Shown: positions 1-18,845, counted from the first letter of the stretch. The stretch: DNA of 64,000 nt from an uncultured Clostridium sp. (GCA_900553365.1 USDL01000001.1:55967-119966), one strand, 5' to 3'. The notes: generated by a model from the sequence alone, not told the origin. A program made the numbers and translations.

Positions 1-361
1 AGGTGCAACAAACAGCATGATTTGGAATTGGAATGTGGTATCTTTTCAATTCTGGATAAATTACTTTGTTAGCGTCATATTTGGCATTGTGAAAAATCCA
101 AACACTATCTGTCATATAATCTTTTATTTCTTCCCAAACTTCGTCAAATGTAGGGCAATTTTTAATAGTATCATAAGTGATACCATTAACTTTAGATGCT
201 CCACTTTCAATCTAGGTCTACGGATTTACTAATATATATTTATCAACAATTTTTTTGCCGTTTTCATACACTAAAATTGCAATACTAACAATTCTATTTT
301 CTTTAAATCCAGTAGTTTCAGTATCTCCTATAACGAGCTTATTATAATTAGGGAGAGCCAT
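1..361 (-). CDS. DEDD 3'-5' exonuclease (DnaQ/epsilon-like); C-terminus lies beyond the window start
   Basis: ATG at 359-361 lies two nt after the TAA of the preceding gene. Hand translation MALPNYNKLVIGDTETTGF...SKVNGITYD...WIFHNAKYD carries an Exo I motif (DTETTG) and an HxxxD-like motif. Two in-frame TAG codons (218-220, 212-214) explain why the ORF track missed it. Confidence 0.7.
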
Positions 362-363
362 AA

Positions 364-807
364 TTACTCTCCCTCTACATCTTTATTAGATTTCAGAGCA
401 TTTGCTCTTGCTGTTTCAATAGTATTATTTTCATCTTTAATAGCCAGAATTTTCTTCATCTTATTAAAAGCTTCTAAAATATATTTCAAAGAACCAGATA
501 AACACACTCCTAAAGTTGCCACTGTTGAAATAACAGTACTATATTCAGCAGGAATAGGAAGATTGTTTTTGTTTGCCCAAGGAATAATTAAAGAGGTAGA
601 AAGTACAAGTAACATTGTACCACCCGCAAAAGCTAAAATTTTATAAAGGCTATTTATTAATCTTTGTTTTTCAAAAGTCTCTCCTGCAATTTTAATATTA
701 TAATACAAAGAGAAACTAACATTAGAAAGATATGCCATGCCAAAAATAGAAAATCCCACCAAAGCTGCCAAAAGATTTTCTAAGGCTAATTTCCAAAAAT
801 CCTACAT
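364..807 (-). CDS. Small multi-pass membrane protein, function unknown
   Basis: ORF 364-771 extends in frame through TAG (802-804) to ATG 805-807, which is preceded by AAAGGAGAAAG. TAG is codon 2. There are several hydrophobic segments and the stop is TAA. Confidence 0.6.
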
Positions 808-825
808 AACTTTCTCCTTTAAATT

Positions 826-1299
826 TTAATTACCAGAACTTCCAAATCCGCCAGCGCCGCGCGCAGTATCGGGAAGTTCTTCTACTTGTTCAAAAGTAGT
901 GGGAAGCACAGGAAGAATCATAGCTTGAGCAATCCTATCTCCGTGTCTAATAATTTGTGTTTCAGTACTATCATTATGAAGAGCAACAATCCATTCACCA
1001 CGATAATCTGCATCAATTACTCCAACGCAATTTGCAGGACGCAAACCTTGCTTTGTAGCCAACCCACTACGAGCAAAGACAGCACCCCAATATCCAACAG
1101 GAATTGCCGTTGCAATACCAGTCTTTACCTTTACCGTTTCGTGAGGACGAATCTTGATTCCTGCAACATCTTTCTGAACATCCCAACTATAATAACTATC
1201 ATCAGGACAATCAGCATAAAGGTCGAAGCAAGCATCAGTCTCGTGCGCCTTAGTAGGCATTTTAGCTGTCTTAGACAGCAATTTAATCTTTACATCCAT
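826..1299 (-). CDS. dut: dUTP pyrophosphatase (trimeric dUTPase)
   Basis: ORF 826-1308 contains ARSGLATKQGL, GVIDADYRGEW and a C-terminal RGAGGFGSSG, which are dUTPase motifs. ATG 1297-1299 is a likelier start than the TTG used by the ORF track. No TAG codons. Confidence 0.85.
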   Translation of the reverse strand: MDVKIKLLSKTAKMPTKAHETDACFDLYADCPDDSYYSWDVQKDVAGIKIRPHETVKVKTGIATAIPVGYWGAVFARSGLATKQGLRPANCVGVIDADYRGEWIVALHNDSTETQIIRHGDRIAQAMILPVLPTTFEQVEELPDTARGAGGFGSSGN

Positions 1300-1356
1300 A
1301 TTTGTCAATCCTTTTTTGTTTAATTTTAATTTGTTTCTGTTTTATTGTATAATATA

Positions 1357-1387
1357 TAAAAATGGTGGAAAGTTACCCTTCCACCAT
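1357..1387 (-). terminator. Rho-independent terminator overlapping the RNA ligase stop codon
   Basis: A 9 bp stem ATGGTGGAA/TTCCACCAT (1362-1370 / 1379-1387) is followed on the minus-strand RNA by UUUUUAUAUAUU. Confidence 0.6.
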
Positions 1388-2731
1388 AGAATTTTTAAAA
1401 CGCTTTAAATTGTGTAGGGCTTTTGTAATTTCAGAATATTTATAGCAAAACTGTCTCTTTAACAAGAAATCGTTTTCCTGTCCAAGATATTTGGTCTTTG
1501 TTCTGCCCTTTAACACTTTGGGAAGCTTATCCATCCAAAGCATTGCTTCTTTTTTATCATTCCAAAAATCTACACATTCTGCATTTCCTTTAATTAAAAT
1601 TTTATCAATAAGCTCTTTATAAAGATTAAGATATTCATGAACAGTATTATAATACTGCATAATTAATTCTCTATACGCTTCAGGACACTTTGCTAAAAAA
1701 TCATCAAATCTATCTTCATGAATAGCATTAATAACTGCATTAGGAGAAATATTCTTAGACAGTGCCTTATGCATCAAGACATAATCTGATGTTTTAATTT
1801 TACATCTAAAATGATTTTTATATCCATCAACCATATCAACTACCCAACCTTCTTTTTCAGAAGAAAGATAATTATCGGTATCGGCTAAAACACTAAACAA
1901 AGTAGCATTATAATACCATTGAGTCATTTTAGAATCATATTCCTCAGCCATGTCACTAAGAATATCAAAAGAAACTTCCTTGCCATCCTTAACATCCCTT
2001 GCCGCAAGTAAATACAATCCTTCTTGAGATTCATCATACTTAACAACAATGGGGTTTTTTGGAGAAATATATTCAAAAATAAAAGTGTAATCAGGGTAAT
2101 CCCTAATTAATTCTTTTTGTCCCTCAGATAAAAGTTTATAACCCGCCGCAAGTCTCCAAGATTCTACAGGGTCTAATGCCTGAGAACCAGAACCTAAAAT
2201 TCTGTCTTCCTCTGCAATATATCTATATTGCTGATAAGAACCATCAAGTTTATTAGTAATAAAAACTGCATGAGCAAAATGATATTTAGACCTAATTTTT
2301 TTAGGAGACCAATCACCATCATCCTCGCCATAATTCTTAAACTTTGCCAAAGAAGCCAAAGCAATTTCGTCATTCTTTAAATCAAAGACACAAGAACGAC
2401 ATTCCCTATAAAGACCATCATATAATTCAAAAAAAGAATTTAAATCATAATCATCAGACAATTCAATAAAACCTTTATACTTAAAAAGTACATAATGGTC
2501 ATAACAAGTAATCTGAAGAGGGTCAAAAATCTTACTCAACTTTTCATTAAGTTTAGGAGTAATATTCTCCCACGCCTCAAAAATTCTGTCGAGCCAATCA
2601 TTAAAATTGTAATTTTCAGGACAAGGTTCGTTGTTAAGGAGAGTATAAGATTGAATATACTTTCTTTTAACAGTCATAACATATTCATAAAGAGGATGCC
2701 AAAGAAACTCTTTCTTAAAATGAAAATTCAT
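1373..2731 (-). CDS. ATP-dependent RNA ligase (T4 Rnl1-like nucleotidyltransferase)
   Basis: The 452 aa ORF has motif I KLDGS (FITNKLDGSY), motif III FIFEYISP, motif IV EGWVV and motif V FRCKIKT. It lies adjacent to a polynucleotide kinase gene. No TAG codons. Confidence 0.8.
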   Translation of the reverse strand: MNFHFKKEFLWHPLYEYVMTVKRKYIQSYTLLNNEPCPENYNFNDWLDRIFEAWENITPKLNEKLSKIFDPLQITCYDHYVLFKYKGFIELSDDYDLNSFFELYDGLYRECRSCVFDLKNDEIALASLAKFKNYGEDDGDWSPKKIRSKYHFAHAVFITNKLDGSYQQYRYIAEEDRILGSGSQALDPVESWRLAAGYKLLSEGQKELIRDYPDYTFIFEYISPKNPIVVKYDESQEGLYLLAARDVKDGKEVSFDILSDMAEEYDSKMTQWYYNATLFSVLADTDNYLSSEKEGWVVDMVDGYKNHFRCKIKTSDYVLMHKALSKNISPNAVINAIHEDRFDDFLAKCPEAYRELIMQYYNTVHEYLNLYKELIDKILIKGNAECVDFWNDKKEAMLWMDKLPKVLKGRTKTKYLGQENDFLLKRQFCYKYSEITKALHNLKRFKNSMVEG

Positions 2732-2766
2732 CTTAAACTCTCCTTTACTAATTTTTATCTTCTGAA

Positions 2767-3732: not shown

Positions 3733-3743
3733 TTTTGTCCTCC

Positions 3744-4190
3744 TTATTCCATCTTAGATAGAATACTATCAATCTTCTCGTTGAATTCTTTTACTAACTT
3801 TTCTTTATCAGTATCAGGTCTTGTTTGTCCCTCAACAGGAATTAAATCTCCTGCCCAAAACAGCCATTTTGGTTTAGTTTCATCTTCTACAAATTGAACA
3901 AGGCTATTATAATCAGCAGTTTGTCTTTCTTTTTTCAAAGGGTCAAACTCAACTGTAAAAATATCATTTTTGTGTTCAGTAACCCAATTTCTATAATCTT
4001 CTCTCATTTGTTTCCAATCTGGATAGGTAATAATTCGATTATAATCTAAAGTTACTTTTTCACCCTCCCATGCAGTAATGGGATTGGTGGTAATACTGTC
4101 CATTCTTTTAACAAAAGTAATAGCGCTTTCTTTTGTTAAACCTTTTTTAGTGAGCTTCTTTACAACCGCTCTACGTTCTTCTCGATTCAT
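3744..4190 (-). CDS. Hypothetical protein (148 aa)
   Basis: Intact ATG ORF with RBS AAAGGAG, directly downstream of a consensus promoter. No motif recognised. Confidence 0.55.
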   Translation of the reverse strand: MNREERRAVVKKLTKKGLTKESAITFVKRMDSITTNPITAWEGEKVTLDYNRIITYPDWKQMREDYRNWVTEHKNDIFTVEFDPLKKERQTADYNSLVQFVEDETKPKWLFWAGDLIPVEGQTRPDTDKEKLVKEFNEKIDSILSKME

Positions 4191-4213
4191 AGTTACTCCT
4201 TTGAATCATTCAT

Positions 4214-4242
4214 ATAATAACATAATCAAATGAAGTTGTCAA
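4214..4242 (-). promoter_or_regulatory. Sigma70-type promoter (TTGACA-17-TATTAT)
   Basis: On the minus strand, TTGACA (4242-4237), a 17 nt spacer, then TATTAT (4219-4214), about 20 nt upstream of the RBS of the 3744-4190 gene. Confidence 0.65.
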
Positions 4243-4256
4243 GAGGATAATAAAAA

Positions 4257-6719
4257 TTATTCCTCTTGTACTTCATCTTTTTCTTTCCAATCTTTTAGTT
4301 GCCTAATTAAAGTTCTACGCTCTTCATCTTCTTTTCTATGAAGCACATTATACTATTCTCTAAGCTATCTGTATTCCTACTTCAAAAATTCAGGTAGGAA
4401 TGTTCTTTTTGTTGAAACAAAATTTGTATCAATAGAACGTCGTAAGGCTTTAGTTTGAGCTACAAGTACACACAATTTCTTAGCTCTGGTTAATAAAGTG
4501 TAAATCTGTTGCTGACAAAGCATCATTGGAGGAGTACTATAATCTATTACTCCAATAATTACAGGGCAACCAGAACCTTGATATTTATGAGTAGTACAAG
4601 CATATCCTAGAATTAAATGTTCCTTAACTTCTTTGTGTTTTAAAATAATAGGTGCATCTCCTAAATCGAAATCAACGATGGCATTTTCATAATCAATACT
4701 TGTAACTACACCAGTCCACCCATTATACATAGCTGTTTGTGCTCCACTTGTATCAAAAACTTTATAATTGTTTTTAATACACATTACTTTATCACCTTCT
4801 TGAATCCAAAAAGACCTGTCATTTCCAGAAGCATCTTTCATCTTTTGAACGTAAATTCTTGGACGAGATTCATTCAAATCAACAGGATTAATTAATTTTT
4901 GAATATCAAGATTTAAATTGTGAACACAAGCATCTCCACGTTCTTTCACAGGAGAAATAATTTGAATTTTTTCAATGTCACCATTTACAAGAGGGCTATT
5001 AAAATATTTTTCAAAATAAGCAATGGTATCTTTTCTATCATCATCTTTTTCATTTCTAATATCAAGTACCATATCTTTCAGTTCTCCGCGAATTTCAACA
5101 CCTTCATAATCAGTATCTTGATATAATTGAATACCATTTCTTACATTATAAGCGGTAGTTAAAATACCAGAAGCCTTTGCTTGTCTATGTACTTCTTTAA
5201 GTTCAACAGTAGGAATTTCTTTGCTATTAATCATATCCGCAGCTAAATTAAGAGAACCAATAGATTCAAGCTGTCCCATATCACCAAGCATTAAAAGTTT
5301 ACTGCCTGTGGGAATTGCTCTAATTAAATCGAGAAAAATTTCTCCACCCACCATACTAACTTCATCTAAAATAATGATATCATAAGGTAATGGATTATCT
5401 TCTCCATAAGAAAAACCACAACCACCAGTATATCCAAGAAGTCGGTGAATAGTAAAACCTTCTTTGCCGGTAACTTCTTGTAATCTTGCCGCCGCTTTAC
5501 CACTTAAAGCACATTGAGCAAAAGTATAGTCATCAAGTACAGATAAAATACCTGTAACTAACGAACTTTTACCAGAACCAGCTAAACCAGAAATTACGCA
5601 AACTTGTTTTTCAATTCCCAGCTTAATTCCGTCTATTTGCTCTTGAGTAAACTGAAAACCTTGTTTCTCTTCTGCTCTTTTTATTTTCTCTTCAAAATCA
5701 TTAGCAACAAAATAATTATTACCTTGAAGTAATCTTTTAAGATGATAAGCAATATCTTTTTCAAGATTCCAAAAGCTCATTAAATAAACTCTTCGACCTG
5801 ATTTAGTATCGCCCTCTTCAACACGAATTAACTCCTCATCTTGAAGTTCTTTAATAGCTTTACCAACATTGTTTACAAGATTACCATCTTCATCTTCTAC
5901 TATTAAACTTTGTTTTCCGCCAAGGTCTTCATATAACGAGCCCATTAATTCACCAGCGGACACCCAAGAATGGCCTTCTTCTCCTTGGGCATCAAGATAC
6001 CATAAGATATAAGATTTAATTCTCTTTGTGTCATAAGTTTTATAACCTGACCTTAAAGCCACTTTATCCGCAGTAAAAAATCCTACTCCTTTAATATCTT
6101 TTACTAACTGATAAGGATTGTTTTTTACAATATCAATTACCTTTTGTGGAGCTTTATATTTTTCAATTAGTTTAGAAATAAAGTTTGGAGAAAAACCAAC
6201 CTTATCAAGCTCTAAATATACAGTAGACATATCTTTACTGGCTTCGAAACGCTCAATAATACAATTAGAAATATAATCTCCAATACCTTTAGCTTTCTTT
6301 AAAGTTTCTATATCATGGTCTGCAATAGCTTGTAATGGGTCATCGCATACAGCAAACAACTCATCCATTTGACCTTCTGATAAAAAAGTTCTTAAAAAAG
6401 CTCTTTGATTCTTCTGATTAGAAAAATCAATATCTTTATTATAATAAACTAATTGATACTGAACACCATATTTAGGATGTTCAACTTCTTTACCTAACAA
6501 TACATAGGCAGAATTGGGGTCAATTCCATCAGTATATTCCCCTGTAAAAGTAACTTCACCATAAACACTCATGATAGGATTTCCTTGTTCTACTTCAAGA
6601 ATATTCCAAGAAACTATTCCCCAATTTTTACCGTCTGACCCAATTCCAGCACTCGGATAGAGGGTCTTGGAATGAGACGCTTTTATCTTTATGAATTTTT
6701 CTTCGGTATCAACACTCAT
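4257..6719 (-). CDS. RecD-like SF1 DNA helicase (AAA_30/UvrD_C type)
   Basis: Walker A GLAGSGKSS, Walker B IIILDEVSM, and the motifs CTTHKYQGSG and YTLLTRAKK. The ORF-track end at 4377 is a TAG. Reading continues through three TAG codons (4377, 4365, 4353) to TAA at 4257-4259. ATG 6717-6719 overlaps the TGA of the DnaE gene. Confidence 0.8.
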
Positions 6720-8280
6720 CGTCAACCCTCTCTACATCTATTCTGTCAGAAATCATTTCAAGGTCTCCATTATCATCAATACCTTTAATTAACTGAACAG
6801 AATGTTTATATAAACTATCTTTGTACTGTCTTGGAATAAAGTTTTCTCCTCTTCTAAAACCAGTAACAAGAAGTTTAGTTCCACGCTGGAACCAAGATTT
6901 CTCAAGAACAGTTTTTGTTCCATCTTCGTTTATTTGAGAAATCTGCCTATTATAAAAATTAAATTGACCTTTATAAAATTTTATATCACAAACTCCATCA
7001 GGAGTCAATAATGTAACTGTATTTCTATTAGTATCTTTATCAAGAACAGTACCACAAATTCTTTTAAGAACAAAGCGAGCTTTTTCTTGGTCATGCCAAT
7101 AATATTTATAAGCCACTTCTGGTTCTTCTGGTTGTTCTTCAAAAGGTACTATACTATATTTTTCTTTGTTTACATGAGCAAGTTCGTGTTCATGATAATA
7201 CATACAAAGAGAATCCATTTCCCACTTAGAAAGACTTCCAGAAGCTTTTTCATCCCATACAGCTTTAAATTTTGCTTCATTTACAGCCACAAGCATTTTA
7301 GGGTCGCTTAAAATATCGTCTTTAAAATCTGCCATGAGCTTGTTAAAAACTCGGTCTAAACTACCTCTTTTAACAACTCTTTGTCCCTCGTCACTCCAGT
7401 CGTAATCTTTTTTATCAATCATGTCATTAAGAAAATATTTTTCAAAGAATGGCCGTGCAAATTTATTTTCAAGGATATAATAAGCTGTACTTGCACTTTT
7501 ACCTATTTGTTTATAAAAGAATTTTTTCTGGAAAACATAATTTCTAAATCTATATAATCTTAATTCAAACTTTTTTTGATTTTCAGTTAATAAATCAAGA
7601 TTTGCCAAATCTTCAATGTTAGAAATATTGAGCGACTTAACAGGACTTGAGATAAATCTAATAAAGTCTTCCATAATTGCTCTTCTATCTTTTTTCTCAA
7701 GATTATCAAAACACCGAGCTTTGATAAGAGAAATCATAGCTGTATCACCAAATTTATTTTCTTTAGATTCAGACTTGTATTTCTGCATCTTCTCGTAAAA
7801 ATCCCACATCGAAGAATAAGTTTGATTATTAATAATAGCTTTTGCAATAGTAGTTCCAATACCTTGAATTGGTTTTAAACCATAAACAATTTCGTTTTTT
7901 TCAACGTCAGGATGGAAACCAAATCTAACACGGTTTACATCAGGTAATGCTACAGTAACACCTTCTTTTTTGATATTACCAATGGCTTTACTAATTTTAC
8001 CATAATTGGTATTTCCATCTTCACCGCCAGAATCGGAAATTAAATTGGCGGTGTTCCAATAAATAACAGGATAATGATAAGCAAGATTAGCTTCTTGCAA
8101 ACCAACGATTGAATAAGCTAATGTATGAGCACTATTAAACCCGTAACCGCGATTCATACTAATGAGAACATCCCATACATAATGACACAGTTTAGAAGAA
8201 AGATGTTTTTCTTCTATATTTTTATAAAATTCTTGTTGTAATTCAACATAAGCTTTAGGATTCTTTTTCAGTTTTGTTAT
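6709..8280 (-). CDS. dnaE: DNA polymerase III alpha (DnaE-type), predicted exon 2
   Basis: Contains GYGFNSAHTLAYSIVGLQEANLAYHYP, the counterpart of the DnaE GYGFNKSH motif. The ORF begins mid-domain, and the sequence is contiguous with ...ADKLRKSIA at the end of the upstream ORF. Stop is TGA. No TAG codons. Confidence 0.75.
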   Translation of the reverse strand: MTKLKKNPKAYVELQQEFYKNIEEKHLSSKLCHYVWDVLISMNRGYGFNSAHTLAYSIVGLQEANLAYHYPVIYWNTANLISDSGGEDGNTNYGKISKAIGNIKKEGVTVALPDVNRVRFGFHPDVEKNEIVYGLKPIQGIGTTIAKAIINNQTYSSMWDFYEKMQKYKSESKENKFGDTAMISLIKARCFDNLEKKDRRAIMEDFIRFISSPVKSLNISNIEDLANLDLLTENQKKFELRLYRFRNYVFQKKFFYKQIGKSASTAYYILENKFARPFFEKYFLNDMIDKKDYDWSDEGQRVVKRGSLDRVFNKLMADFKDDILSDPKMLVAVNEAKFKAVWDEKASGSLSKWEMDSLCMYYHEHELAHVNKEKYSIVPFEEQPEEPEVAYKYYWHDQEKARFVLKRICGTVLDKDTNRNTVTLLTPDGVCDIKFYKGQFNFYNRQISQINEDGTKTVLEKSWFQRGTKLLVTGFRRGENFIPRQYKDSLYKHSVQLIKGIDDNGDLEMISDRIDVERVDDEC

Positions 8281-8513
8281 CACAGAGCTTTTTATCTCTG
8301 CTTCTTACAATTTCTTGTAAGCTCGGCGTACATTATTAACTCTAACGAGTTAAAGGACACTCTTGGATGGATTATATTTATTCACCATCTACGCTCTACA
8401 ATACTTAATAACCTTTCGCAATTTATTAAGTTATCTCGATGTTTCCATTTTACAGGGTTCACCGATTTTGCCCTTTTCATTTTACTTGTCACCAAATAAA
8501 CGGCCCAAAATTA
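8281..8513 (-). ncRNA. Putative ORF-less self-splicing (group I-like) intron interrupting dnaE
   Basis: A 233 nt non-coding, structure-rich insert sits inside a conserved DnaE helix. It starts with an in-frame TAA and ends in G. The exon end UUGCU can pair with the internal GGCAA (U.G at the junction). GAAA-capped hairpins are present (CTTACAA-GAAA-TTGTAAG; ACTTAATAA..TTATTAAGT), as is TAACTC-GTTA-GAGTTA flanked by GCGTA/TACGC. Confidence 0.5.
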
Positions 8514-10925
8514 AGCAATACTTTTCCTAAGCTTATCAGCCCACAGCAAATCAAAACCACCAATCTCAGGGTCTTGAACTGCCATCATAAAGTCTTCTTG
8601 GTTAGGTAATAAACCATAGCTCTTCTTAGCGTATTTACAAATAACTTCTTGCTCATGTTTAGTCAAACCATAATCATCCATCTCTTTATACCAAAGAGTG
8701 ATATCTTTCTTATAACGACCAAAACGCTCAAGAGGTGTTTCTGCCCGTGGAGAAGGAGCCATAAGTCTCATTACTGAATTTAAAGCAGATAAATCTACCA
8801 AACTTTCAGGTTTACCTATTGCAACAGCTTGATATCCAGTTTGTTTTTCCATCTGGAAAAATGACATAACTTTATGTTCATTAAGCATTTTCCAAATTTC
8901 TGGATTATCCCTTTCTATTTTGTAAACGCCTAAATATTTTTCGTAAGTAGACTTTAAATCACCTTGCCATTCAAGCCTACCGTCTTCCATAAGAAGATTC
9001 ATACAAACATGTTCTTTTTGAAGAGCATCAATAGAAAGCAAATCCCATTTAATAAGAGATACTTTTTCATCAGCGTGTAGGTCAAACTGAGTGATAATAT
9101 CTCCACTCGTTGTCTTCATTAAAGCAGCATGGTCTACAACGTCTGTTGCTGAAAGAACTACCCCACCAGCATGAGAACCAACTCCACTTACTAACCCTTC
9201 AATATTTTGAGCAACTTCCCAAACATCAGGGTACTCATTAGTCATTAAGTTAACAAATTCTTTGTCAGGACGTAAATTGTTTTCTTCATCACCATAAAAA
9301 CATTGTTTTAAAGTAAACTGAATACCACGTTCTTGACCAATATGTGAACTTAACATCTGTCCAATTTCAGGTGGATAACTTAAACCACGACAAGCAGTTT
9401 GAATTGCAACTTTAGCTTTCATCGTAGAAAGTGTTTGAACCTTCATAACACGACGATTTCCTGCTCTCTGGTCATCGCCACAATACTTGCGTTGAAGATA
9501 GTGAATAACATCATCACGATAAGCATTCTCAAAATCCACGTCAATATCTAATGGGCTAACACGTTTAGGATTAAGAAAGCGCCAGTGATAACAAGGAACA
9601 TCTTCTCTCAGAGGATTAACCTGAGTAATTCCTAAAATATACAAAAGAATAAATCCTAAACCTGAACCACGAGAAGGACCAACTAAAGAACCACAAGCCC
9701 AACACGCATTTACCAAGTCACGAGTCTGTAACAAATAAGCTGACCAATGAGCATTATTAGCTTCTGAACTTGCTTTAATAGACTCAAGACATGTTTGAAT
9801 TGCATCATAAGTTTCTTTATTTGCTAATTCATCAGAATCTTTTTCAAGGCGCTTAACAATTTCTCTAACAAGGTGTCTATCAGCATTGTAATCTGAATTA
9901 AAAAACCACTCTAACATAGGAATATCTTTAAAATATTTTTTAGCTAAACCCAAATCAGGTTCAGTTAAATCATCTGGCTCATAAGGAATTTCCAAATTAG
10001 CGAATAAAGTATATTCTTGAACCATGTTATAAATCAACATGGTATTATCTAAGCCTTTTTGTACAACTTCTGGAGTCAAAAATTCATCCATGTAAGAATG
10101 AATTTCTTCTTCGGACATCATATAAGTTGTAGCATAAAACTCTCCAACCTCACGTTCTTTACCACTATCTTCATTAGATTTAAGAAAAGCTTCATGTACT
10201 TTTCTATCTTCTTTTTTGGGATAATGACTATCGGTAGTGATAATATATGGAATATCAAGTTCAGCAGACAGTCCCACTAAAGCCTGATTTACAATAATTT
10301 GTTCTTCACTCTTTGATGGCTGTAATTCCAAAAAGAAATTACCATGCCCAAAACATTTATCGAGTCTTTTTAACCATTTCTTGACGCCCTTATAATCAGG
10401 TTGTAAAGGATTTTGTTTATAAGAATCTAAAATTAATTTTGGACAACGACCACCAAGGCAAGCAGTTGAACCAATAATATGACCTCTATCAGATTCAACT
10501 ACTTCAAACAAATCTTCATAATAAGTTGGAGTACAAATATTAACATAAGTAAAAGAATTATCAATCCATGCTCTTGTACTTAATTCTCTTATTTGCTTAT
10601 GTCCAATGGCATCTTTAGCCAACAAAATGAAGTGATAAAAAATATATTCTTTGTCTTCTTCAATACTTTTTCGATTGCAAAGATAAATTTCATTACCTAA
10701 AATAAGTTTATAATCTTTCCACTTATCAGGATTTTTCTTTCGCAAATCGTCTATTTGAGTTAATGCTTCAACGTGTGCGGCAATACAGTCATGGTCTGTA
10801 ATAGCAACACCTTTATGACCAAGCTCCTAAGTATATGTGAGAAGACCCTTGACAGTGTTAGTGCTGTCAAGGAAACCTCTCGTATTGGAGCCTATGTCTG
10901 TGTGATTATGTACACCTACAAACAC
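8514..10925 (-). CDS. dnaE: DNA polymerase III alpha (DnaE-type), predicted exon 1 (PHP and palm domains)
   Basis: ORF 8511-10745 extends upstream through TAG (10827-10829, codon 33) to GTG 10923-10925, which is preceded by AAGGAGAG. The N-terminus VFVGVHNHTDIGS...AITDHD is a PHP motif, and PSRGSGLGFILLYILGITQVNPL is palm-like. Confidence 0.8.
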
Positions 10926-10954
10926 GGCATTACTCTCCTTTATATTTTTGTCTT

Positions 10955-10983: not shown

Positions 10984-10985
10984 CC

Positions 10986-13025
10986 TTAAAAATCCAAATC
11001 TTCTAAATCTTTATCTAACATTACTCTTTTCTTCTTGGGCTTTTCAATTTCATCCCAATCAAAATCTGTAGTAGATTTTGCATTTAAGGAAGTCGTTTTA
11101 GAATTAAGAATAGCGTCAGATTTAGTCTTACTTTTTAAATCAGAAGTCTCATTTGTTTTATCCTCCATAACATCATAATATAAAATTTTAACTTCTGGAT
11201 AAATCTTGTCTTCCCAAGACTCTAACTGGAACTGGCAAATTAAATTCATTACCAAATTCTTTTTATTAGCGCCAAAGGTATATCTATCCTTAAGAGTCAT
11301 CATATCAAATTCTGTAGCAGGACAATACTTTTTAATATAAGTAATACCGTTATGCTGGAATCTAATAAAACTCTTAGTTTCGCCATACCCATTAATTTGA
11401 CTAGCATTTATATGAAGATTTGTAATTGCAAAAGTAGGAGTAGGGACAGTATTACCCCACACTTCATAATTTTCAGCTACTTCTTTTACAAATCTTACTT
11501 GCATTTCATTAGCAGGAATTTCCCAATCAACTGGATAAATAGTTTTAAGTTGGTCAAGAGGAAGCATTTCGTTACACTTTTTAATTACCTCATCAACATT
11601 TTTCTTTTTAAGAAATACACCAGCAGCGTTTTCATGTCCAGCACAACTTATAAGTCCAGTTTGCTCTAAAAACTCCTTCAAGTTTTTAATGTTTCCTTTA
11701 TCATATCCGCGACAGGAGCCACCGAATTCTGAGATACTCCTTTCCTTAAGAAGCACCACTGGACGCAAATACTTAGAAGCAATCTTGTTTGCTACTAATC
11801 CCGTAACAGATTTTTTATCAACTATGTCGGTACAATCGACAAATAAAATAGTATTTTTATCTAGTCCTTGTTTGTCAATTTTATCAACAATTTGCTCCAT
11901 AAATTTACGAACGGCTGTATCTTGACGAGACTTTACATTATTAGCTACTCTCGCCATCTCCCATTGAAGTGTATGTTCTTCTGGAAGAGGTTTCGGGTCG
12001 GTAGCTCTTTTTCTTCTTGGTTGATAAATAACAGTTTCTTGTTCTCCAACCATAGCTCTGAATAAATCTCTTTGCTCTTTTTCTGTACCATAACGTACTA
12101 CACCATTAATTCTTGGAGCAAGTACCCAGCCGACATTTGTAATAGTTCTACCAAAGTGAATTTCATCAGCCATTCTTTCTTGAAGTTCATTAAGAAAATC
12201 ATTCTTTTGATTTTCAACTTTCAAACCTTCAAGTACATACCATCTTGTTTCTAAGTCTCTCAAATCCATACTATCTGCAATAATACCAAGAGAAACTAAA
12301 TCAAGATATTCATCAAGCCAACTATCACTACAGTGATACTTTTCACAATAAGCTTCACCAAATTTGCGAACTACACCCACACCAGACAAAGTAGGATTGG
12401 GATAGTGACCATCAGTATCATTTACAGCTACACAATAGTTAATGTAACTATCTTCTTTAATTCTGTCAGACTCTTTTTCTTTAATTTCATCCGCTTCATT
12501 TTTTAAAATCCATTTACCTGTGTTAGTATCTAAATATTCAATTTCAACTAAATGGTGGTCTAACACAATTATAGGGCAATTGTAATTTTTAGCAATTTGA
12601 ATCGCATCTTTACAAATCATTGAAGCATCTGGAATAATAATTAAACCGATTTCATCTTTTGAATATTCACTTAACATCTTGTAAGTTAATCCATGCTCTT
12701 TATTAAAGCTAAAAATATATTCTACTTTAGCTTCAGGATTAAAATGCTCAATAATTTTACTCATTAAAGTAGCAGATGTATATCCATCACAATCGCAATC
12801 GACCTTAATTACAATTTTCTTGTCTGTATCAATATTATCATGAAAAACCTAAACAGCCTCATCCATATTCTTCATCTAAAATGGGTCATTAATAACCTTA
12901 TTTTTTACAGGATGAAGAAAACTTTTTACATCCTAAATATCATAGCTTTTTAAAATAGTTTCAAGAAAATCATATTCATCATCAAAGTTATTCTAAAACT
13001 TTGTCTCCCATAGTAATTTTTCCAT
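10986..13025 (-). CDS. recJ: RecJ-like DHH-family single-strand DNA exonuclease
   Basis: ORF 10986-12764 has a DHH motif (VLDHH). The in-frame upstream extension carries motif I (KVDCDCDGYTS) and four TAG codons (12993, 12933, 12876, 12849; codons 11, 31, 50, 59). ATG 13023-13025 overlaps the primase TAA (TAATG). Confidence 0.75.
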
Positions 13026-14221
13026 TAATTACCTCTTAAAAATATACTCGTAGAACTTTGCCTTTCCCCGTAAGAATAAACAGGTTTTGCTAATTTTATT
13101 AATTGATTGTAAACATCTTTTCCTTTATCAAGAGGTGAATCTTTGATATCTAACAATCCTTTGGTGTCCTTAATAAGAAAGACATTAAAGCTTAAAGCAA
13201 GTCTCTGAGCTAAAGTCCTTAATCGTTCATTATACCTTAAATAGTTATCATATAACAATTTGTCAGCTTTATATACTTCTTCATATTTATCATCAAAGTC
13301 TTTATCAAAACCTAAATAAACTGTATCTACTCCGAGTTTTTCTAAAGCCCTAATTTGCCAATCTGAAACATTAAAGCCACAAGTTGCCACTACGCAACTT
13401 TTACCATTAAAATAAGTGTCTGCTTTTAAAACACTTTTCTCACCCTCAACTATAACCGCTTTCTTAAATCTTTTTATATTTTCTTTATTCTCGTAAAGAC
13501 CATATAAATTCAATCCAAGAGGATGGTCAAATTCTTTACCAGTCATAAACAAAGGCATATATTTTCTTTTAGAATCTTCTGGTTGTAAACTTCTTCGTCT
13601 AATACCAACTAAATGACCATCTATATTATAATGAGGAATAATTATATATTTTTGATATTCATACCATTCAATACCAAATTTTTCCATAGAAGAAATACTA
13701 ATTCCTTCATCAATCCAACCTTTATAAAAAGTATTACAATCAAAATAATTAAAAAGACATTTATAATCATCATAAAACTTCGTAATTTTAGCTTCATGAA
13801 ATTGTTGTCTTCTTTCAATATCTTCTGATTGTTTTACCATTTCAGATAATTGTCCACGCAACTCTGGTGAAATATCATTTCCAAAACCAATACGACTTCG
13901 AGATAATGATTTACCAACTTTTTTAGCAATATAAACAATTACCTTGCTATAAAATTCTCCGTCTTTAGCATTACGAATTCTTTTAATAAACTCAAAAAAA
14001 TTCATTCGTCCACAATTTGTATAACAAAAAAAATCTTTGCTTTCAGTAAAGAAACATAGTTTATGACTATCTCCACCATGACAAATTGTTTTAAACCAAA
14101 GACATTTTTGTTGTGTTCTTCCATCTGTAGAAGTTGAATATAAAGGAGAACCATTTTCTTCCATGATGTTAATAACCACATCTTCTGTTACCAACTTCAA
14201 CAGTTCATCTTTATCTATCAT
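13025..14221 (-). CDS. dnaG: DNA primase (zinc finger plus TOPRIM)
   Basis: Zinc-finger-like CLWFKTICHGGDSHKLCFF...CYTNCG, and TOPRIM motifs VIVEGEKSV and LGFDKDFDD. ATG 14219-14221 follows GAGG. No TAG codons. Confidence 0.75.
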   Translation of the reverse strand: MIDKDELLKLVTEDVVINIMEENGSPLYSTSTDGRTQQKCLWFKTICHGGDSHKLCFFTESKDFFCYTNCGRMNFFEFIKRIRNAKDGEFYSKVIVYIAKKVGKSLSRSRIGFGNDISPELRGQLSEMVKQSEDIERRQQFHEAKITKFYDDYKCLFNYFDCNTFYKGWIDEGISISSMEKFGIEWYEYQKYIIIPHYNIDGHLVGIRRRSLQPEDSKRKYMPLFMTGKEFDHPLGLNLYGLYENKENIKRFKKAVIVEGEKSVLKADTYFNGKSCVVATCGFNVSDWQIRALEKLGVDTVYLGFDKDFDDKYEEVYKADKLLYDNYLRYNERLRTLAQRLALSFNVFLIKDTKGLLDIKDSPLDKGKDVYNQLIKLAKPVYSYGERQSSTSIFLRGN

Positions 14222-14233
14222 AAACAACCTCTA

Positions 14234-16048
14234 TTAATAATCTATTTCTTCTTCCTCTTTTGATGAAGCTTTCTTTTCTTCTTCGTCATCTTCATCATCT
14301 TCTACCATTCTAAATTTCCTGCTTTCAGGAGATTCTAAGAATGGGTCCTCTTCATTTTCAAGAGCTTCTTTAATTTTTTTTGTTACTTCTTCCGTATCTT
14401 CAAAAACATCAAAAGTTCCTTCTTCCTTGGCAGTTTGAGCAATATCAACTGCATCGTTAATCATTTGACTTCGTAAGAAGTCTTTGTTGTTAAAGAATTG
14501 AACCTTTTGGTCTTCTTCAACACGAGTAAATGTTTGAGGAATATCTAAAAGTTCATAGTCATAATCAGTACAAAACAAATCATGAACTCGCATTGTAGAA
14601 TATTCAATATACAACCAAATTTTAACTTTATTGTATTCTCCACCACGATTTTTATAAACTGATAAACATCTATTAGGCTTATATTTTAAGAATTTACTTC
14701 TCAAAATTTTCTCTAAATATTTTTCTTCTTTCTTCGTAACCTCTGACAAAATTGCTCCATGGTCAGCTTTATCAATGATGGCTTTAGCACCACGCACAAT
14801 TGTTTGGTCACGATTCTACTCGTTCTTAAAATCCCCCGTAACCTGTGTCCAAGTATCAATGCAAATATCGTATTTTCGAGTAAGGTCTTTTAATTTCAAA
14901 CTTAAATTTGCAAGAACTTGGTCTTCACGAATTTGCATTCTTGCTTTGGCATTAGCTTGGAACTCACTAATCAAATCAGTTGTTACATGAATATAATCAA
15001 AAAAAACATGAGTTATTCCATGTTGAAGAACGTGTTGTTCAATAACATTCTCTAAAGTTCCGATATCATAGTCAGGTACATATTCAAGATAAATATGTCC
15101 CTCTTCATGAAGAATTCTAATAGCTTCATCAACTCTTTCTTCTTCATCCCCAACATACTTACCCGTCATAATATGTTGCTGAGGAACATCTGCAATATAG
15201 GCCCATAAAATAGGCTCAATCTCTGTAATAAGCTCCATTTCTGTTCCAATATAAAGAGCAGCATTTTGAGTACCATTTGGATTTTTTACGAATTCTCCAA
15301 CATTAGAATCCCAATATTTAGGAGTGAAAGAATGACAAAGATTGGCAATAGTAACTCTCGTTTTTCCTAAACCTGTCCGTGCAGAACAAACAGTAAATCT
15401 TCGTGGTTGCATACCTCTTGTTACGGTAGTCATATAATTACTTGCGTAAGATAAACCATAAGCAGGAGTTTTCTTCCATTCTTCTTTTTGCTTTCGAGCT
15501 TCATCACTACCAGCTTTAACACTATCACGCCCAATTTTGGGACTATATTCTTGAGTAATATTAGATACTTTTTGTCTAAAATAATTAAGTATATCATCAA
15601 TAGTCATTTGACTAAATTGATATCTTTGTTCATCTGCAATTTCAGGGTCTTCTTCGTCAGGATTGTAAATTTCATCAACTTCGATACCTGACTTAAGATA
15701 AGCACGAAGAAGAGAAAACTTTTTCATCTCCTGATAATTAGTATTAAAGTTTTCTGGCGTAGCTAATTCTTTAGCCTTTTCAACATAAAGATTGCCATTA
15801 TTCCTTGTATAAATATTATATAAAGACTGCAAATTGTTTTTTAAGTAGTCATCAATAATATATTGGTCAAGTTTTACCGCACCCTGAGAAAAAAGATTGT
15901 TTATCGCTACAAATAAAAGTTGATGGAAAGCTTCAACAAAATCTTTTTTGTCGATTTTATTACTTGTTAATAAAGTTGGATTCTACAGTAAACAGCCAAG
16001 AACTTCTTTAATTGCAGATTTGCTTTGATAATCTCTATAATCCGCCAA
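14234..16048 (-). CDS. dnaB: Replicative DNA helicase (DnaB-like)
   Basis: Three ORF-track fragments join in frame through TAG at 15983-15985 (codon 22) and 14816-14818 (codon 411). The N-terminus is AIKEVLGCLL-x-NPTLL (DnaB N-domain-like) and Walker A is ARTGLGKTR. TTG start at 16046-16048 lies 6 nt after GGAGG. The C-terminus has an acidic tail. Confidence 0.75.
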
Positions 16049-16049
16049 G

Positions 16050-16751
16050 TTAAGCCTCCCATTCTTCGGGATGTTCAGCCATTATTTCTTGAACATCTCT
16101 TTGTAATTCTGATAAAAACATATTATCTTTTTCCTTTTGCTTTTGCAAATCTTTTCTAAAATTATAATCTCCTATAAAATCTGTGTTTACTATTCCATCA
16201 TCAATAATATCTTCAGCAGAAATTTCTTCCTTGTGATTGCGTTTATTACGTCTTTCCTCTTCTTCTTCCTGCTTTTTAATAATTTCAGAACGAGCTACAT
16301 CTATTGCAACAGGCTGTTTTGTTAAAACATATTCAATTAATTCAGTTTTAGTCATCTTCATTTCTTTGTATTTTTGCCAAAAATCTCTGGATTCAGCAAA
16401 ATAACGTACAACCATGAAGATGTCTGATTCTGTCTTTATGGGAGGAGCTGGATTATCAGCATACTCGTACATATAATATAAAGTATAAAGAATTTGAGAA
16501 TTAGTCAAACCATATTTTTCTTTTATCTTTTTTATATAAGTGGTTACAAGAGAAGCGTTAACCCACTCTCTCATACCCAAGTTATCCCAAAGATAATCTG
16601 TTAAAAGTCTGTAATCTTTAGCATCATGGGCAGGCTATTTGCCGCAAACTGAACAATAATTTTTACCATTTACGGTGATAATTTCTTCAAAAGGGAACAT
16701 TTTGCCACAAACACTACATTTTCTATTTTTTCTTGGTGCTATAATCCTCAC
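16050..16751 (-). CDS. Zinc-ribbon protein, possible replication-organiser/helicase-loader position
   Basis: ORF 16050-16580 extends through TAG (16635-16637) into CSVCGK...CSVCGK. Only non-ATG starts are available (GTG 16749, ATT 16743, ATA 16740) after AAAGGAG, so the start is uncertain. Confidence 0.45.
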
Positions 16752-16822
16752 TCCTTTCTTAAAATATTAAAACGGAAAATAAAGGGGAATAGTAATTAGT
16801 TTTACTATCCCCCAATAATTAT

Positions 16823-17842
16823 TTATTCTACTGTAATATTATTTTCAGTACAGTAATCCTTCAAATCATCGAGAATAAGTAAAAGCATATCCAATTGAGA
16901 TTCATCGCAATCTTTTACACTCTTACCCTTTCCAAGATACTCTGCAATAATCTTCTTATATTCTGTACTACCAGTATTATGAATAGCCTTTACATAGCTA
17001 CCGATTTCAGCAATAAGCTCATCAACGCTCTTCTTTTCATCTTCGGTAACTTCGTTATCCTTAAAGAGATTAACCTCATTATCAACAACTGTCGCACCAT
17101 TAGCCTTTTGTTTATCAATAGCCTTTGCCATATCATCACGCAATGCTTCATAAGTAAATGGAATACATTCAGACATATAAGGACTACGAGAACCAGCTTC
17201 AAGATGCTTATTGCCTCTCATAGTAAGCATGGAATGAACATTACCCTGTTCATCAGTTTCATAAGAAGCGTAACCAGTTACGTCAACAAGACGAGAAACA
17301 ACAAGGAATCCACGGTCGGGTACAGTAGGAATAGTCTTATCATATTTCTCACCGTTTTCCTTAATCTGCTTAGTGGTGGCATGAGAAATACAAATCAAAG
17401 TATAACCAGCCTTAACAATCTCTTGGAAAAACTTATCATACTCACGAGACAAAGCACGATAGCCACGCATCTTTTCAGTCTCATCAAGATAATCTACACC
17501 TTCCTTGTCTACGATATACTTCTCACAAAGGTCGTAGGCAATATCAATAGTATCAACAATTACCGTTTTAAAGATTGTTTCTCTATTTTCTTTTTCAGCC
17601 GCATCTGCATCTTTAAGTAACTGCTTCTTTACTTCAAGAGCTTCTTTCCAAGTGTTAATTGGCTGTGCAATAATGCCATCCAAGAAACCATAGCCTTTTT
17701 CGAAACCAAGCAAAATAGGCTTGGGAAATTTACAAGCATTTGTAGTTTTGCCGCTCTTTCTTTCTCCATAAATGAGAAAACTCTTACCACTAAGGTCACG
17801 AGTGACCACATTAGGCTTAATGCTAAAAATATCAATACCCAT
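16823..17842 (-). CDS. AAA/RecA-like ATPase (phage Sak4/AAA_24-like)
   Basis: The 339 aa ORF has Walker A YGERKSGKTT and a Walker B-like VIVDTID. Its position next to the SSB is typical. No TAG codons. Confidence 0.6.
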   Translation of the reverse strand: MGIDIFSIKPNVVTRDLSGKSFLIYGERKSGKTTNACKFPKPILLGFEKGYGFLDGIIAQPINTWKEALEVKKQLLKDADAAEKENRETIFKTVIVDTIDIAYDLCEKYIVDKEGVDYLDETEKMRGYRALSREYDKFFQEIVKAGYTLICISHATTKQIKENGEKYDKTIPTVPDRGFLVVSRLVDVTGYASYETDEQGNVHSMLTMRGNKHLEAGSRSPYMSECIPFTYEALRDDMAKAIDKQKANGATVVDNEVNLFKDNEVTEDEKKSVDELIAEIGSYVKAIHNTGSTEYKKIIAEYLGKGKSVKDCDESQLDMLLLILDDLKDYCTENNITVE

Positions 17843-17897
17843 TATTTAAATGTCTCCTTTTAAAAATTTTGAATTATTTTTAGTTGTCGATTAGAAA

Positions 17898-18845
17898 TTA
17901 GAAAGGAATATCATCGTCATCATCAACAACAGGAGACATCTTTCCAGAACCCTTCTTACCAAAGCCCGTAGGTGCAGAAGAACCATTACTGCCCTTAGAG
18001 CCCTGATATCCTGCTCCCTCAAGTTCCTTCAAACGACTTGCTCTCTCATTGAGCATAGCCTTACACATCTGAGGAGTGATAATCATATCTTCCTGCTCAT
18101 CTTCATCATAAGCAATATCACCACCAGTAAGAACCATTTCAAGATAGCTCTTGCCCTCAGTTACTCTCTGCTGACCAAAACCCTTGGTCTTAGGCTTTGC
18201 TTCACTCTTTTCATTGGGCTTCCAGCTAACATACATCTTAGCAGTAGCACCCTTAACATAGCCATTATCTTCAAGAGCATCCACAAAATCCTTGGGAATA
18301 ATAATATTCTTAATATCAAGAGCGTTATGATAAAAATCCATACTAATGAGATTTAAACGCTTTCTACCAGTAGGCTTCTTATCATCTTCAGAGCCACGCT
18401 CTTCATCAGTAATACTCTTAATATATCCCTCGATATCAAGGTCACAAGCAAATTCTTCAAAATCATTAAAGAATTGCATAGAAGCAAGAGTACCTTCGTG
18501 AAGCTGTTCATCAGAACCAACATAATCATTTGCACTAAGAGAACCAACAAGTCTCACCATAGTGGCATTTTCCTTATCTTTAGTCATAGGAACTGCTTTT
18601 TTAACCCAGTCAAGAACCTTTTCATAGTTCTCACTATCTGTACCATCAGCTTTCTTCGCCTTGATAAAAGACGTGAAAGAACGAGTCATTACACTTTCTT
18701 CGCCGCACTGAATCTGCCCACGAATACGAATGTAATCAACACCATTCTTGTCCACACCCTACTTGGACTCAATATCAGCGAGATAACCCGCAAGAGTCAC
18801 GCTATTTGTCAATCTACGAATCTGGTCAGTATTTTTTGTAGCCAT
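17898..18845 (-). CDS. ssb: Single-stranded DNA-binding protein (atypically long)
   Basis: The C-terminus DDDDDIPF is the canonical SSB acidic tip, preceded by a Gly/Ser-rich linker. ORF 17898-18755 extends through TAG (18759-18761, codon 29) to ATG 18843-18845. Confidence 0.65.

Follow-up and report, generated by a model that had tools for sequence, protein, structure and literature searches.

In-frame TAG codons are concentrated near the 5' ends of replication genes in a phage that reads TAG as glutamine

The window, the whole 64,000-nt stretch of DNA analysed here, is, as judged from its sequence, part of a ~215-kb Firmicutes phage that decodes TAG as glutamine, and all of its genes lie on the minus strand. 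Gene starts were set by their Shine-Dalgarno context and codon numbers were then recomputed. Every TAG position listed in a first-pass annotation of this DNA held after recomputation, the zinc-ribbon TAG falling at codon 37 instead of ~39. Sixteen genes were assigned to a replication module; the definition of this module and the exclusion of homing-endonuclease genes are judgement calls. At its upstream edge lie a small ORF (19166..19498) with a TAG at codon 21 (19436-19438) and a candidate sigma-A-type promoter (19119..19147, minus strand), a near-consensus TTGACA-17-TATATT with a preceding TG. Sites resembling it by consensus match only are present close upstream of dnaE (10955-10983) and at 4214-4242, and similar consensus-only matches also occur 5' of TAG-rich genes (25899-25927 and 42502-42530).

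Downstream of this edge, the gene for an SSB-like protein (17898..18845; 315 aa, acidic tail DDDDDIPF, PHROG 2367 alignment over residues 5-315) carries a TAG at codon 29 (18759-18761), and that for a Sak4-like ATPase/annealing protein (16823..17842) has none. The TAG of the zinc-ribbon gene (16050..16745), which is about codon 37 (16635-16637) if numbering begins at an ATT/ATA start, adjoins the second CxxC on its 3' side, with a PHROG 4680 alignment over residues 9-148; it is present in 32/32 loci of clade A, the clade of the window, including proteins at 82% identity. The DnaB-like helicase (14234..16048; 604 aa, TTG start) has TAG at codon 22 (15983-15985), within the DnaB N-terminal domain (residues 10-72), and at codon 411 (14816-14818); the latter is found in the window only, relatives of at least 75% identity having CAA (30 loci) or GCA (4). 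DNA primase (13025..14221; 398 aa) is free of TAG in the window, and two relatives (L003 and L011) carry one at codon 37. The RecJ/YorK-like exonuclease (10986..13025; 679 aa) contains TAG at codons 11 (12993-12995), 31 (12933-12935), 50 (12876-12878) and 59 (12849-12851), all of them preceding the Pfam DHH domain, which covers residues 70-248; apart from the window, L074 alone has TAG at codon 50.

The gene for the DnaE-type polymerase (6709..10925; GTG start) has a lone TAG at codon 33 (10827-10829), within the PHP domain (residues 18-203), and is split by a 245-nt intervening sequence (8269..8513, minus strand). The protein, put earlier at ~1330 residues, is 1,323 aa long once this insert is spliced out. 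The insert is exactly missing in L075, and both L075 and L076 carry an unbroken ORF. The preceding exon ends in U and the insert in G, its removal leaves an open 1,323-codon frame, and its fold z-score is -2.8. A comparison of the insert with Rfam gave no match, and Intron_gpI was not hit at E <= 1; its likeness to a small group I intron makes it a putative member of that class. Another insert, which lies in the ATPase gene of L023, scored just 19.7 bits in such a comparison.

The RecD/exonuclease V-like helicase (4257..6719; 820 aa) shows the reverse pattern, as annotated at first pass, with TAG only at codons 781 (4377-4379), 785 (4365-4367) and 789 (4353-4355). Its PHROG 4412 alignment covers residues 5-782, which places these codons in a tail past the family core, and the same three sites are ATG, AAG and ATG in clade B. 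The module genes for a dUTPase (826-1299), an RNA ligase-like protein (1373-2731), a polynucleotide kinase/HD protein (2767-3732) and a further ORF (3744-4190) are TAG-free. In the small membrane protein gene (364..807) the TAG is codon 2 (802-804), immediately 3' of an ATG preceded by AAGGAG 7 nt upstream; it is found in 13/13 clade A loci and is replaced by CTT in clade B. The DnaQ-like 3'-5' exonuclease gene (2..361), which runs off the window at its 3' end, has TAG at codons 48 (218-220) and 50 (212-214). Its full-length relatives encode 180 aa, with a third TAG at codon 168, and the two DnaQ TAGs of the window fall inside the Pfam RNase_T domain, which spans residues 10-166 of a full-length relative.

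If the true starts lay downstream of the TAG clusters, the gene heads would be leaders or upstream small ORFs and the pattern an artefact of annotation. This does hold for a pair of TAGs shortly before the RecD start, which belong to its leader and lie outside the coding sequence. Elsewhere, however, strong Shine-Dalgarno sites mark the upstream starts, Pfam and PHROG alignments span the TAGs, and clades B and D retain the head sequences, with sense codons at the TAG sites. For RecJ, tblastn alignments to the homologues of the standard-code phages SPbeta and Geobacillus E3 begin at residue 4-5. An artefact is hence extremely unlikely, and the first-pass annotation was right in taking the N-terminal segments as coding sequence, though not in placing conserved RecJ motifs upstream of the TAGs, since the DHH domain follows them. 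Standard decoding would stop DnaE, DnaB, RecJ, DnaQ and the SSB-like protein early, leaving a short peptide of each as had been proposed, and their synthesis therefore depends on suppression.

A way around this dependence would be termination at the head TAG, as long as suppression is not yet available, followed by reinitiation at a nearby in-frame start, giving usable proteins with a truncated N-terminus early and full-length ones later. A GTG does lie two codons past SSB TAG 29 and an ATG immediately 3' of RecJ TAG 50, the next in-frame starts are codon 61 in DnaE, 73 in DnaB and 13 in the membrane protein, and RecD would merely lose 40 C-terminal aa. Such restarts would, however, deprive DnaE of its PHP HxH motif and DnaB of much of its N-terminal domain, the RecJ start after TAG 59 is codon 88, beyond the first DHH motif, and the internal starts have no visible Shine-Dalgarno sequence. 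We regard this explanation as very improbable.

Reading TAG as sense lets minus-strand ORFs of 100 aa or more span 62,952 nt, against 51,165 nt under code 11. This gain in coverage, together with in-frame TAG inside the PHP, DnaB_N and RNase_T domains, is in keeping with code 15. Among relatives of at least 90% identity, TAG sites of the window are polymorphic with CAA/CAG. These include RecJ 50, DnaQ 50 and DnaB 411, as well as nine or more sites within ORFs g21790 (21790-25809) and g20753 (20753-21772). Codons 8 and 22 of DnaB are reciprocal between clades A and B, TAG in one being Gln in the other. On these comparative grounds the assignment of TAG to glutamine can be regarded as shown. Code-15 phages are expected to encode a suppressor tRNA with the anticodon CUA; here no tRNA was found in the window or in ~30 kb of flank in relatives, and ~120 kb of the ~215-kb genome lies outside the search.

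Across the 16 module genes, 11 TAGs fall in codons 2-60 (11.7 per 1,000) against 4 in the other 5,160 codons (0.8 per 1,000), an odds ratio of 15.2 (Fisher p = 8.6e-7). Codons 61-400 hold none in 3,677 codons, three of the four late TAGs are those in the last 40 codons of RecD, and 9/16 genes have no head TAG. When Gln codons were shuffled within each gene, p was <= 5e-5 for the window and 2e-4 for clade B; for clade D it was 0.011, counting the first 100 codons. As a share of Gln codons in replication genes, TAG stands at 0.37 in heads, falls to 0.01 in the middle part and is 0.14 over the final 40 codons. The TAG:CAG ratio drops from 7:2 over codons 2-40 to 4:6 over codons 41-60 and 0:34 over codons 61-400, and in successive position bins it runs 2:1, 5:1, 4:6, 0:4, 0:15 and 0:15, the counts per bin being small. 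The distribution is shaped by selection and is not random drift.

A general 5' codon-usage effect, either a ramp or relaxed codon selection for mRNA structure, would make TAG one more rare, slow codon. In the same genes GC-ending rare codons are ~1.8-fold enriched in codons 2-60 (odds ratio 6.8 for CTC), and the scale of 30-60 codons agrees with the 5' region reviewed in PMC4288200. The TAG contrast, 15-fold and with none in codons 61-400, far exceeds that of the other rare codons, and across genes TAG density is unrelated to rare-codon density (rho = -0.03). Most head TAGs also lie outside the start-codon zone where mRNA structure matters, and those in C-terminal tails are left unexplained. 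This explanation is thus improbable.

The comparison of predicted genes shows the head-TAG pattern to recur in two sister clades, with the TAGs at other positions, and likewise in genes outside the window. Clade B has just four TAGs in 9,160 codons (DnaB 8, RecJ 40, also counted as 41, RecD 10 and NrdD 16), all in genes of at least 600 aa. The clade D TAGs are SSB 34, RecJ 12 and 109 (5 and 97 in the cross-clade comparison) and DnaE 66; the one in SSB is codon 31 in window numbering, two residues from codon 29 of the window. TAG positions turn over between the clades, from DnaB 22 to 8, from RecJ 11/31/59 to 41 and to 5/97, and from NrdD 30 to 16. The window TAGs of five genes (SSB, zinc ribbon, DnaE, membrane protein and DnaQ) are missing from the sister clades, and clade B has lost all five. 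Outside the window TAG is found at codon 30 of NrdD, codon 15 of an 89-aa protein and codon 168 of 180 in DnaQ. Within clade A, most of whose contigs come from one metagenome, divergence is low, head TAGs are fixed and late-gene TAGs are often polymorphic. TAGs in gene bodies (DnaB 411, RecJ 354, 557 and 600, RecD 807) are young singletons. C-terminal-tail TAGs comprise RecD 781-789, DnaQ 168 and tails in L084. In phAss-1, an unrelated code-15 phage, three enzymes each have a single head TAG and two tRNA-Sup-CTA genes lie directly upstream of nrdD. Distant relatives that recode TGA served as a control and are free of head bias: only 2 of ~12 replication-gene TGAs lie in the first 60 codons.

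Unconstrained genes give a reference level for TAG. In homing-endonuclease-like ORFs and a 1,339-aa fibre-like ORF, TAG:CAG is 43:5 and TAG/Gln 0.34-0.40, against 0.01 in replication-gene bodies. Synonymous Leu pairs show the same pull to T (TTG:CTG ~5-7:1, TTA:CTA ~9-21:1). The heads of replication genes, at 11:8, are below the unconstrained ratio (p = 0.006). Non-replication and structural genes have a milder asymmetry, with TAG/Gln of 0.20 in heads and 0.08 in the rest.

On balance, we consider it probable that the pattern reflects position-dependent purifying selection under incomplete suppression, an extreme form of the nonsense-error cost principle. Suppression would compete with the release factor during translation of the replication and nucleotide-metabolism genes, and because it would be incomplete, each TAG would abort a fraction of ribosomes. 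Mutation pressure would steadily convert CAG to TAG, and selection would purge TAG from positions at which aborting means a wasted long chain or an interfering fragment. In roughly the first 60-100 codons an abort would cost a short peptide only, in roughly the last 40 it would leave a working protein, and in both places TAG would be tolerated. The output of DnaE, DnaB, RecJ, DnaQ, SSB and NrdD would then be tied to suppressor activity, with cheap failures. Two demands on this model should be stated. The drop across codons 60-100 is steeper than a linear position cost predicts, so that a second factor must be assumed, e.g. fragments that fold and become toxic. Moreover, a head TAG cuts yield as much as a body TAG, and the model hence needs yield loss to be near-neutral in these genes.

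The first-pass annotation had instead seen a regulatory pattern in which a 5'-proximal amber codon acts as a cheap gate. In such a suppressor checkpoint, head TAGs would be positively selected and the replisome and dNTP-supply enzymes made only once TAG decoding is active; in a variant, head TAGs may also keep enzyme dose low. It is in favour of a checkpoint that TAGs lie within essential N-terminal domains, so that no enzyme would arise under standard decoding, and that RecJ, DnaB and NrdD have a head TAG in both clades A and B, at different positions. The confinement of all four clade B TAGs to large genes, the invariance of clade A head TAGs beside often polymorphic late-gene ones, and the arrangement of nrdD and single head TAGs in phAss-1 point the same way. 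Against it, TAG:CAG declines gradually from heads that are already below the unconstrained ratio, the majority of module genes have no head TAG, clade B has lost five of the TAGs, tail TAGs cannot gate anything, and structural genes show the same asymmetry. Of the proposal, the non-random, selection-shaped distribution and the need of these enzymes for suppression stand; the gate as such is doubtful, and we judge a checkpoint rather unlikely. The data agree better with tolerance of TAG at sites where terminating early costs little or does no harm than with TAG being installed as a switch. Two observations nonetheless count against tolerance by position alone. Head TAGs are invariant within clade A, though divergence there is low, and the occurrence of RecJ head TAGs in clades A, B and D alike, but at non-homologous sites, together with the clade B TAGs all in genes of at least 600 aa, hints at selection for TAG presence. 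A selected gate may operate in a few large enzymes (RecJ, DnaB and NrdD).

In the code-switch model of Borges et al. (10.1101/2021.08.26.457843), early and replication genes are translatable in the standard code. The phage described here shares with those phages a TAG read as an amino acid in a presumably standard-code host, replication genes poor in in-frame TAG, and homing-endonuclease ORFs and tail genes rich in it. It differs in that DnaE, DnaB, RecJ, DnaQ, the SSB-like protein, the zinc-ribbon protein and NrdD each have a TAG in the first 60 codons. Since no plausible functional start lies downstream, these genes would not be translatable before the code switch. Within-gene position is not analysed in the text of that preprint, where 'N-termin' does not occur and 'position' occurs once. 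Nonsense-error cost theory (PMC13271495) holds that termination-prone codons are biased to the 5' end and purged increasingly further along the gene. The 5' enrichment and the gradual fall of TAG:CAG with codon position are as that theory expects, whereas here a reassigned stop takes the place of the error-prone codon, the effect exceeds 10-fold instead of a few percent, and it is limited to one gene class and accompanied by C-terminal-tail relaxation. A bias of this kind would also be expected to grow with expression level and with the termination rate at the codon.

In the bldA/TTA system of Streptomyces, a codon read by one special tRNA makes its carrier genes conditional (PMC10732093). Ribosomes pause at TTA, a sense codon, whereas TAG here is a stop. 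Reportedly (Fuglsang, in 2005), TTA is also placed preferentially early in Streptomyces genes. Key TTA sites, as in adpA, are conserved in position, and a tRNA-gated regulon would have its codon at orthologous positions and its tRNA under temporal control; here the positions differ between clades and five genes are TAG-less in clade B. The in-frame UGA near the start of prfB (release factor 2), mentioned in PMC10732093, works as a sensor whose output is set by the balance of termination and decoding and whose failure is cheap. An early in-frame stop ties output to that balance in both systems. The prfB site, however, is a single conserved one with a programmed +1 frameshift and a dedicated Shine-Dalgarno stimulator, and no such signal or conserved sequence context was seen around the TAGs here. 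Tolerated premature stops cluster at gene ends, and restarts follow early nonsense mutations, as in lacI and T4 rII. The U-shaped distribution of tolerated stops along the gene is common to these cases and the phage genes; in the former, 5' tolerance comes from downstream reinitiation, whereas here read-through is required, because conserved motifs lie upstream of the TAGs or span them.

All genes in the window were found on the minus strand, at a GC content of about 33%. With TAG read as a sense codon, minus-strand ORFs of at least 100 aa covered 62,952 of the 64,000 nt, versus 51,165 nt under code 11. Along the direction of transcription, portal and head genes are followed by a mixed region, a 4,306-aa ORF (25981-38901, minus strand) and baseplate-like genes, and a replication and nucleotide-metabolism module runs downward from about 19,100. 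Megablast of the window returned no close GenBank phage; among cultured phages, Enterocloster and SPbeta-type phages came closest, with protein identities of 30-36%. A crAss-like identity was ruled out since the RecJ/YorK-like protein and the major tail protein match other phage groups, the former Geobacillus virus E3 and the SPbeta group (31-35% identity) and the latter Enterocloster bolteae phages (34-36%). Relatives were found in IMG/VR and ENA assemblies as contigs of 123-221 kb, and many of the contigs of clade A, the close relatives, come from a single metagenome. Three more distant relatives (L081, L085 and L086) apparently use the standard code.

Among relatives that are at least 90% identical, the TAG sites of the window were observed to vary between TAG and CAA or CAG, as at RecJ codon 50, DnaQ codon 50, DnaB codon 411 and many sites of a 1,339-aa fibre-like ORF (21790-25809, minus strand), and at DnaB codons 8 and 22 two clades have TAG and Gln in reciprocal arrangement. 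These alignments show that TAG means Gln in this phage family. Since the 4,306-aa ORF carries 41 evenly spread TAGs and the fibre-like ORF 20 TAGs versus a single CAG, read-through late in infection would have to be near complete. ARAGORN detected no tRNA of any kind in the window and no suppressor tRNA in the fetched family loci, extended by 10-kb walks, two of them downstream and one upstream (about 95 kb in all).

In the replication genes, TAG is strongly concentrated near the 5' end. Codons 2-60 of the 16 module genes hold 11 TAGs (11.7 per 1,000) and the other 5,160 codons hold 4 (0.8 per 1,000), an odds ratio of 15.2 (Fisher p = 8.6e-7), where the limits of the module and the exclusion of homing-endonuclease ORFs are judgement calls and the counts per position bin are small. 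TAG is the most head-enriched of all codons in these genes. None of the 119 Gln codons between positions 61 and 400 is TAG, and three of the four late TAGs fall within the final 40 codons of RecD. When Gln codons were shuffled within genes, with the TAG count per gene and the Gln positions held fixed, the bias remained significant (p <= 5e-5). The other 36 genes of the window showed only a mild head excess (odds ratio 1.3); once both giant ORFs and the endonuclease-like ORFs were left out, the TAG/Gln fraction among them was 0.20 in heads versus 0.08 elsewhere. Bases flanking head TAGs were no different from those at late-gene TAGs or at Gln codons. The first 40-60 codons of the replication genes (1-19100, minus strand) also show an excess of GC-ending rare codons, about 1.8-fold as a class, with an odds ratio of 6.8-8.9 for CTC. 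The possibility that TAG behaves as an ordinary rare codon was rejected, TAG density and rare-codon density being uncorrelated across genes.

A GGAG-type Shine-Dalgarno site was identified at the chosen start of every module gene, including the unusual starts of DnaE (GTG), DnaB (TTG) and the zinc-ribbon gene (ATT or ATA), and a recount from these starts reproduced the TAG codon numbers of the first-pass annotation. That annotation had also held it unlikely that the true starts lie downstream of the TAGs, and we reject such starts as well, since domains, profiles and tblastn matches cover the heads as real coding sequence. TAG 33 of DnaE is within the PHP domain, TAG 22 of DnaB within the DnaB N-terminal domain and TAGs 48 and 50 of DnaQ, a gene cut by the window edge, within RNase_T; PHROG profiles cover the TAG sites of the SSB-like and zinc-ribbon proteins, and tblastn matches of RecJ to standard-code phages start at residue 4-5. 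The conserved motifs said to lie upstream of the TAGs were not borne out for RecJ, where all four TAGs precede the DHH domain (from residue 70), and the two TAGs immediately 5' of RecD belong to its leader and are not coding sequence. Initiation at the next in-frame start past the TAGs would cost DnaE the HxH motif of PHP, DnaB most of its N-terminal domain and RecJ the first DHH motif. Standard decoding cannot yield DnaE, DnaB, RecJ, DnaQ, the SSB-like protein or NrdD, and hence replication in this family lies downstream of TAG suppression. RecD would be merely 40 aa shorter under standard decoding.

The head TAGs of the window are common to clade A. Beyond the left edge of the window, NrdD has a single TAG, at codon 30, a zinc protein of 89 aa has one at 15 and DnaQ one at 168/180; no TAG occurs in LigA, ThyX, a helicase or some 20 further genes. 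Clade B, a sister clade about 70% identical, has only four TAGs in the 27 genes (9,160 codons) of its replication arm, namely DnaB 8, RecJ 40, RecD 10 and NrdD 16; none coincides with a TAG position of clade A, and the within-gene shuffle again gave a significant bias (p = 2e-4). In the strongly recoded sister clade D (L083), TAGs were found at SSB 34, RecJ 12 and 109, and DnaE 66. TAGs in gene bodies are singletons confined to one or two contigs (DnaB 411, in the window only; RecJ 354, 557 and 600; RecD 807), and look like mutations that arise everywhere and persist only in heads. Distant relatives L030, L032 and L034, taken as a control only, showed no head bias, with 2 of about 12 replication-gene TGAs in the first 60 codons. 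In these phages, whose Sak4-like ATPase is about 42% identical, TGA and not TAG is apparently recoded, and TGA is scattered through the replication genes. In phAss-1 (L088-L090, OQ749652), an unrelated code-15 phage, the sole TAG is early and inside a Pfam domain in ThyX (22), a radical-SAM enzyme (49) and an amidase (48), an anecdotal set of three Pfam-verified cases in a genome where TAG-sense gene calls are noisy. Two tRNA-Sup-CTA genes lie immediately upstream of nrdD in phAss-1. The 'code 15 clade' also includes the Lak megaphages, which were left out as too large and too heavily recoded.

Two readings of the head TAGs were weighed, namely that they are selected as a switch or that they persist where abortion is cheap, and the TAG:CAG ratio was taken as the discriminator. 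T is favoured everywhere at this type of position (TTG:CTG 5-7:1, TTA:CTA about 9-21:1), and TAG:CAG is 43:5 in the endonuclease-like ORFs and the fibre-like ORF, which we used as the unconstrained level. In the replication genes the ratio falls from 7:2 in codons 2-40 to 4:6 in codons 41-60 and 0:34 in codons 61-400. The head ratio of 11:8 is significantly under the unconstrained ratio (p = 0.006) and far over that of gene bodies (1:48, p = 5e-7); since heads fall between the two, TAG is not over-represented there, and is instead purged less and less towards the start. The first-pass description of a regulatory pattern as opposed to random codon drift thus stands as to non-randomness, on the Fisher test and the shuffles, and is not supported as to a gate. 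Tolerance is also favoured by the absence of head TAGs from most module genes, by the loss of five of them in clade B and by the same, milder asymmetry in other genes. TAG survives in C-terminal tails as well: the PHROG profile of RecD (exonuclease V) ends at residue 782, exactly where its tail TAGs start (4353-4379, minus strand; spaced i, i+4, i+8 on one helix face). According to nonsense-error theory, termination-prone codons are tolerated near the 5' end and selection against wasted synthesis rises with chain length (PMC13271495), and the declining TAG:CAG ratio, the survival in tails and the losses from heads together match this established expectation. The strong purging of gene bodies speaks for TAG still terminating some ribosomes during expression of the replication genes, and the pattern implies that it acts partly as a stop at that stage.

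It is also conceivable, and in our opinion rather unlikely, that head TAGs are selected as a suppressor checkpoint, making synthesis of the replisome and dNTP-supply enzymes DnaE, DnaB, RecJ, NrdD and SSB conditional on the phage's own active TAG decoding, with the gate placed within the first ~60 codons so that failure would cost almost nothing. RecJ, DnaB and NrdD do hold a head TAG across clades despite turnover of its position, the clade B TAGs are all in genes of at least 600 aa, and the fall past codon 60-100 is steeper than a linear cost predicts. If this were true, the code switch would precede and license replication, reversing the current model in which recoding merely delays late and lysis genes.

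Introns, inteins or endonuclease insertions appear to be widespread in the family. Removal of an ORF-less 245-nt insert in dnaE (8269-8513, minus strand) gives an open frame of 1,323 codons. The insert is precisely absent in relatives L075 and L076, is preceded by U and ends in G, and has a fold z-score of -2.8; it resembles a small group I intron and had no Rfam match. Orthologues interrupted at varying sites were observed in RecJ (near aa 78 and 458), DnaB (near 228 and 426), the ATPase (near 31 and 47) and DnaE (near 232, 449 and 467), in loci L007, L009, L011-L015, L023-L026, L072-L074, L077, L079 and L083, and one ATPase insert in relatives gave a weak Intron_gpI match (19.7 bits). TAG-rich homing-endonuclease-like and nuclease ORFs occur on the minus strand of the window (55974-56996, 49372-50394, 41852-42388, 50415-51422 and 42536-43069) and in relatives L054 (13121-13918) and L093 (16661-17587); their TAG/Gln fraction is 0.34, with 7-8 TAGs per ~300 aa, which fits recoding that delays expression of mobile endonucleases. 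Either side of the ORF at 55974-56996 are two TAG-free, GC3-rich ORFs (57386-57901 and 55342-55797, minus strand), perhaps a single highly expressed structural gene that a mobile element has divided in two.

Perfect or near-perfect TTGACA-17-TATAAT promoters were predicted on the coding strand in intergenic gaps, most preceded by TG (10955-10983, 19119-19147, 4214-4242, 25899-25927, 42502-42530 and 47562-47590, minus strand), and none in the head-gene region at 48-64 kb. Near-consensus sigma-A sites precede the replication module and TAG-rich genes alike, so that promoters do not separate the two in expression timing. An Rfam 'drum' RNA match (45830-45926, minus strand; 43.6 bits against a gathering score of 43) overlaps a weak 64-aa ORF upstream of a ClpP-like gene.

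The placement of recoded stops within genes offers a new, sequence-only read-out of translation in recoded phages, and we predict that other code-15 and code-4 phages, too, should have a stop-to-cognate-codon ratio that depends on gene class and on the place of the codon in the gene. The position of recoded stops within genes is not discussed in the recoding literature that we searched; the underlying nonsense-error principle is already known, and it is its form with recoded stops that we did not find there. For annotation, gene callers and code predictors that rely on TAG density will overlook such genes or truncate their N-termini, as in the GenBank record of phAss-1, where CDS called with code 11 leave recoded genes as fragments ending at TAG. 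Avoidance of recoded stops has been reported for integrases of two recoded phage clades, Garnet and Topaz; the tyrosine-recombinase-like gene of the window (40401-41474, minus strand) has three TAGs, at codons 9, 73 and 203. In the published picture of recoding, replication genes are in the standard code (10.1101/2021.08.26.457843). In contrast, replication in this family depends on TAG suppression, a pattern that contradicts the idea of early genes in the standard code and late genes in the alternative one.
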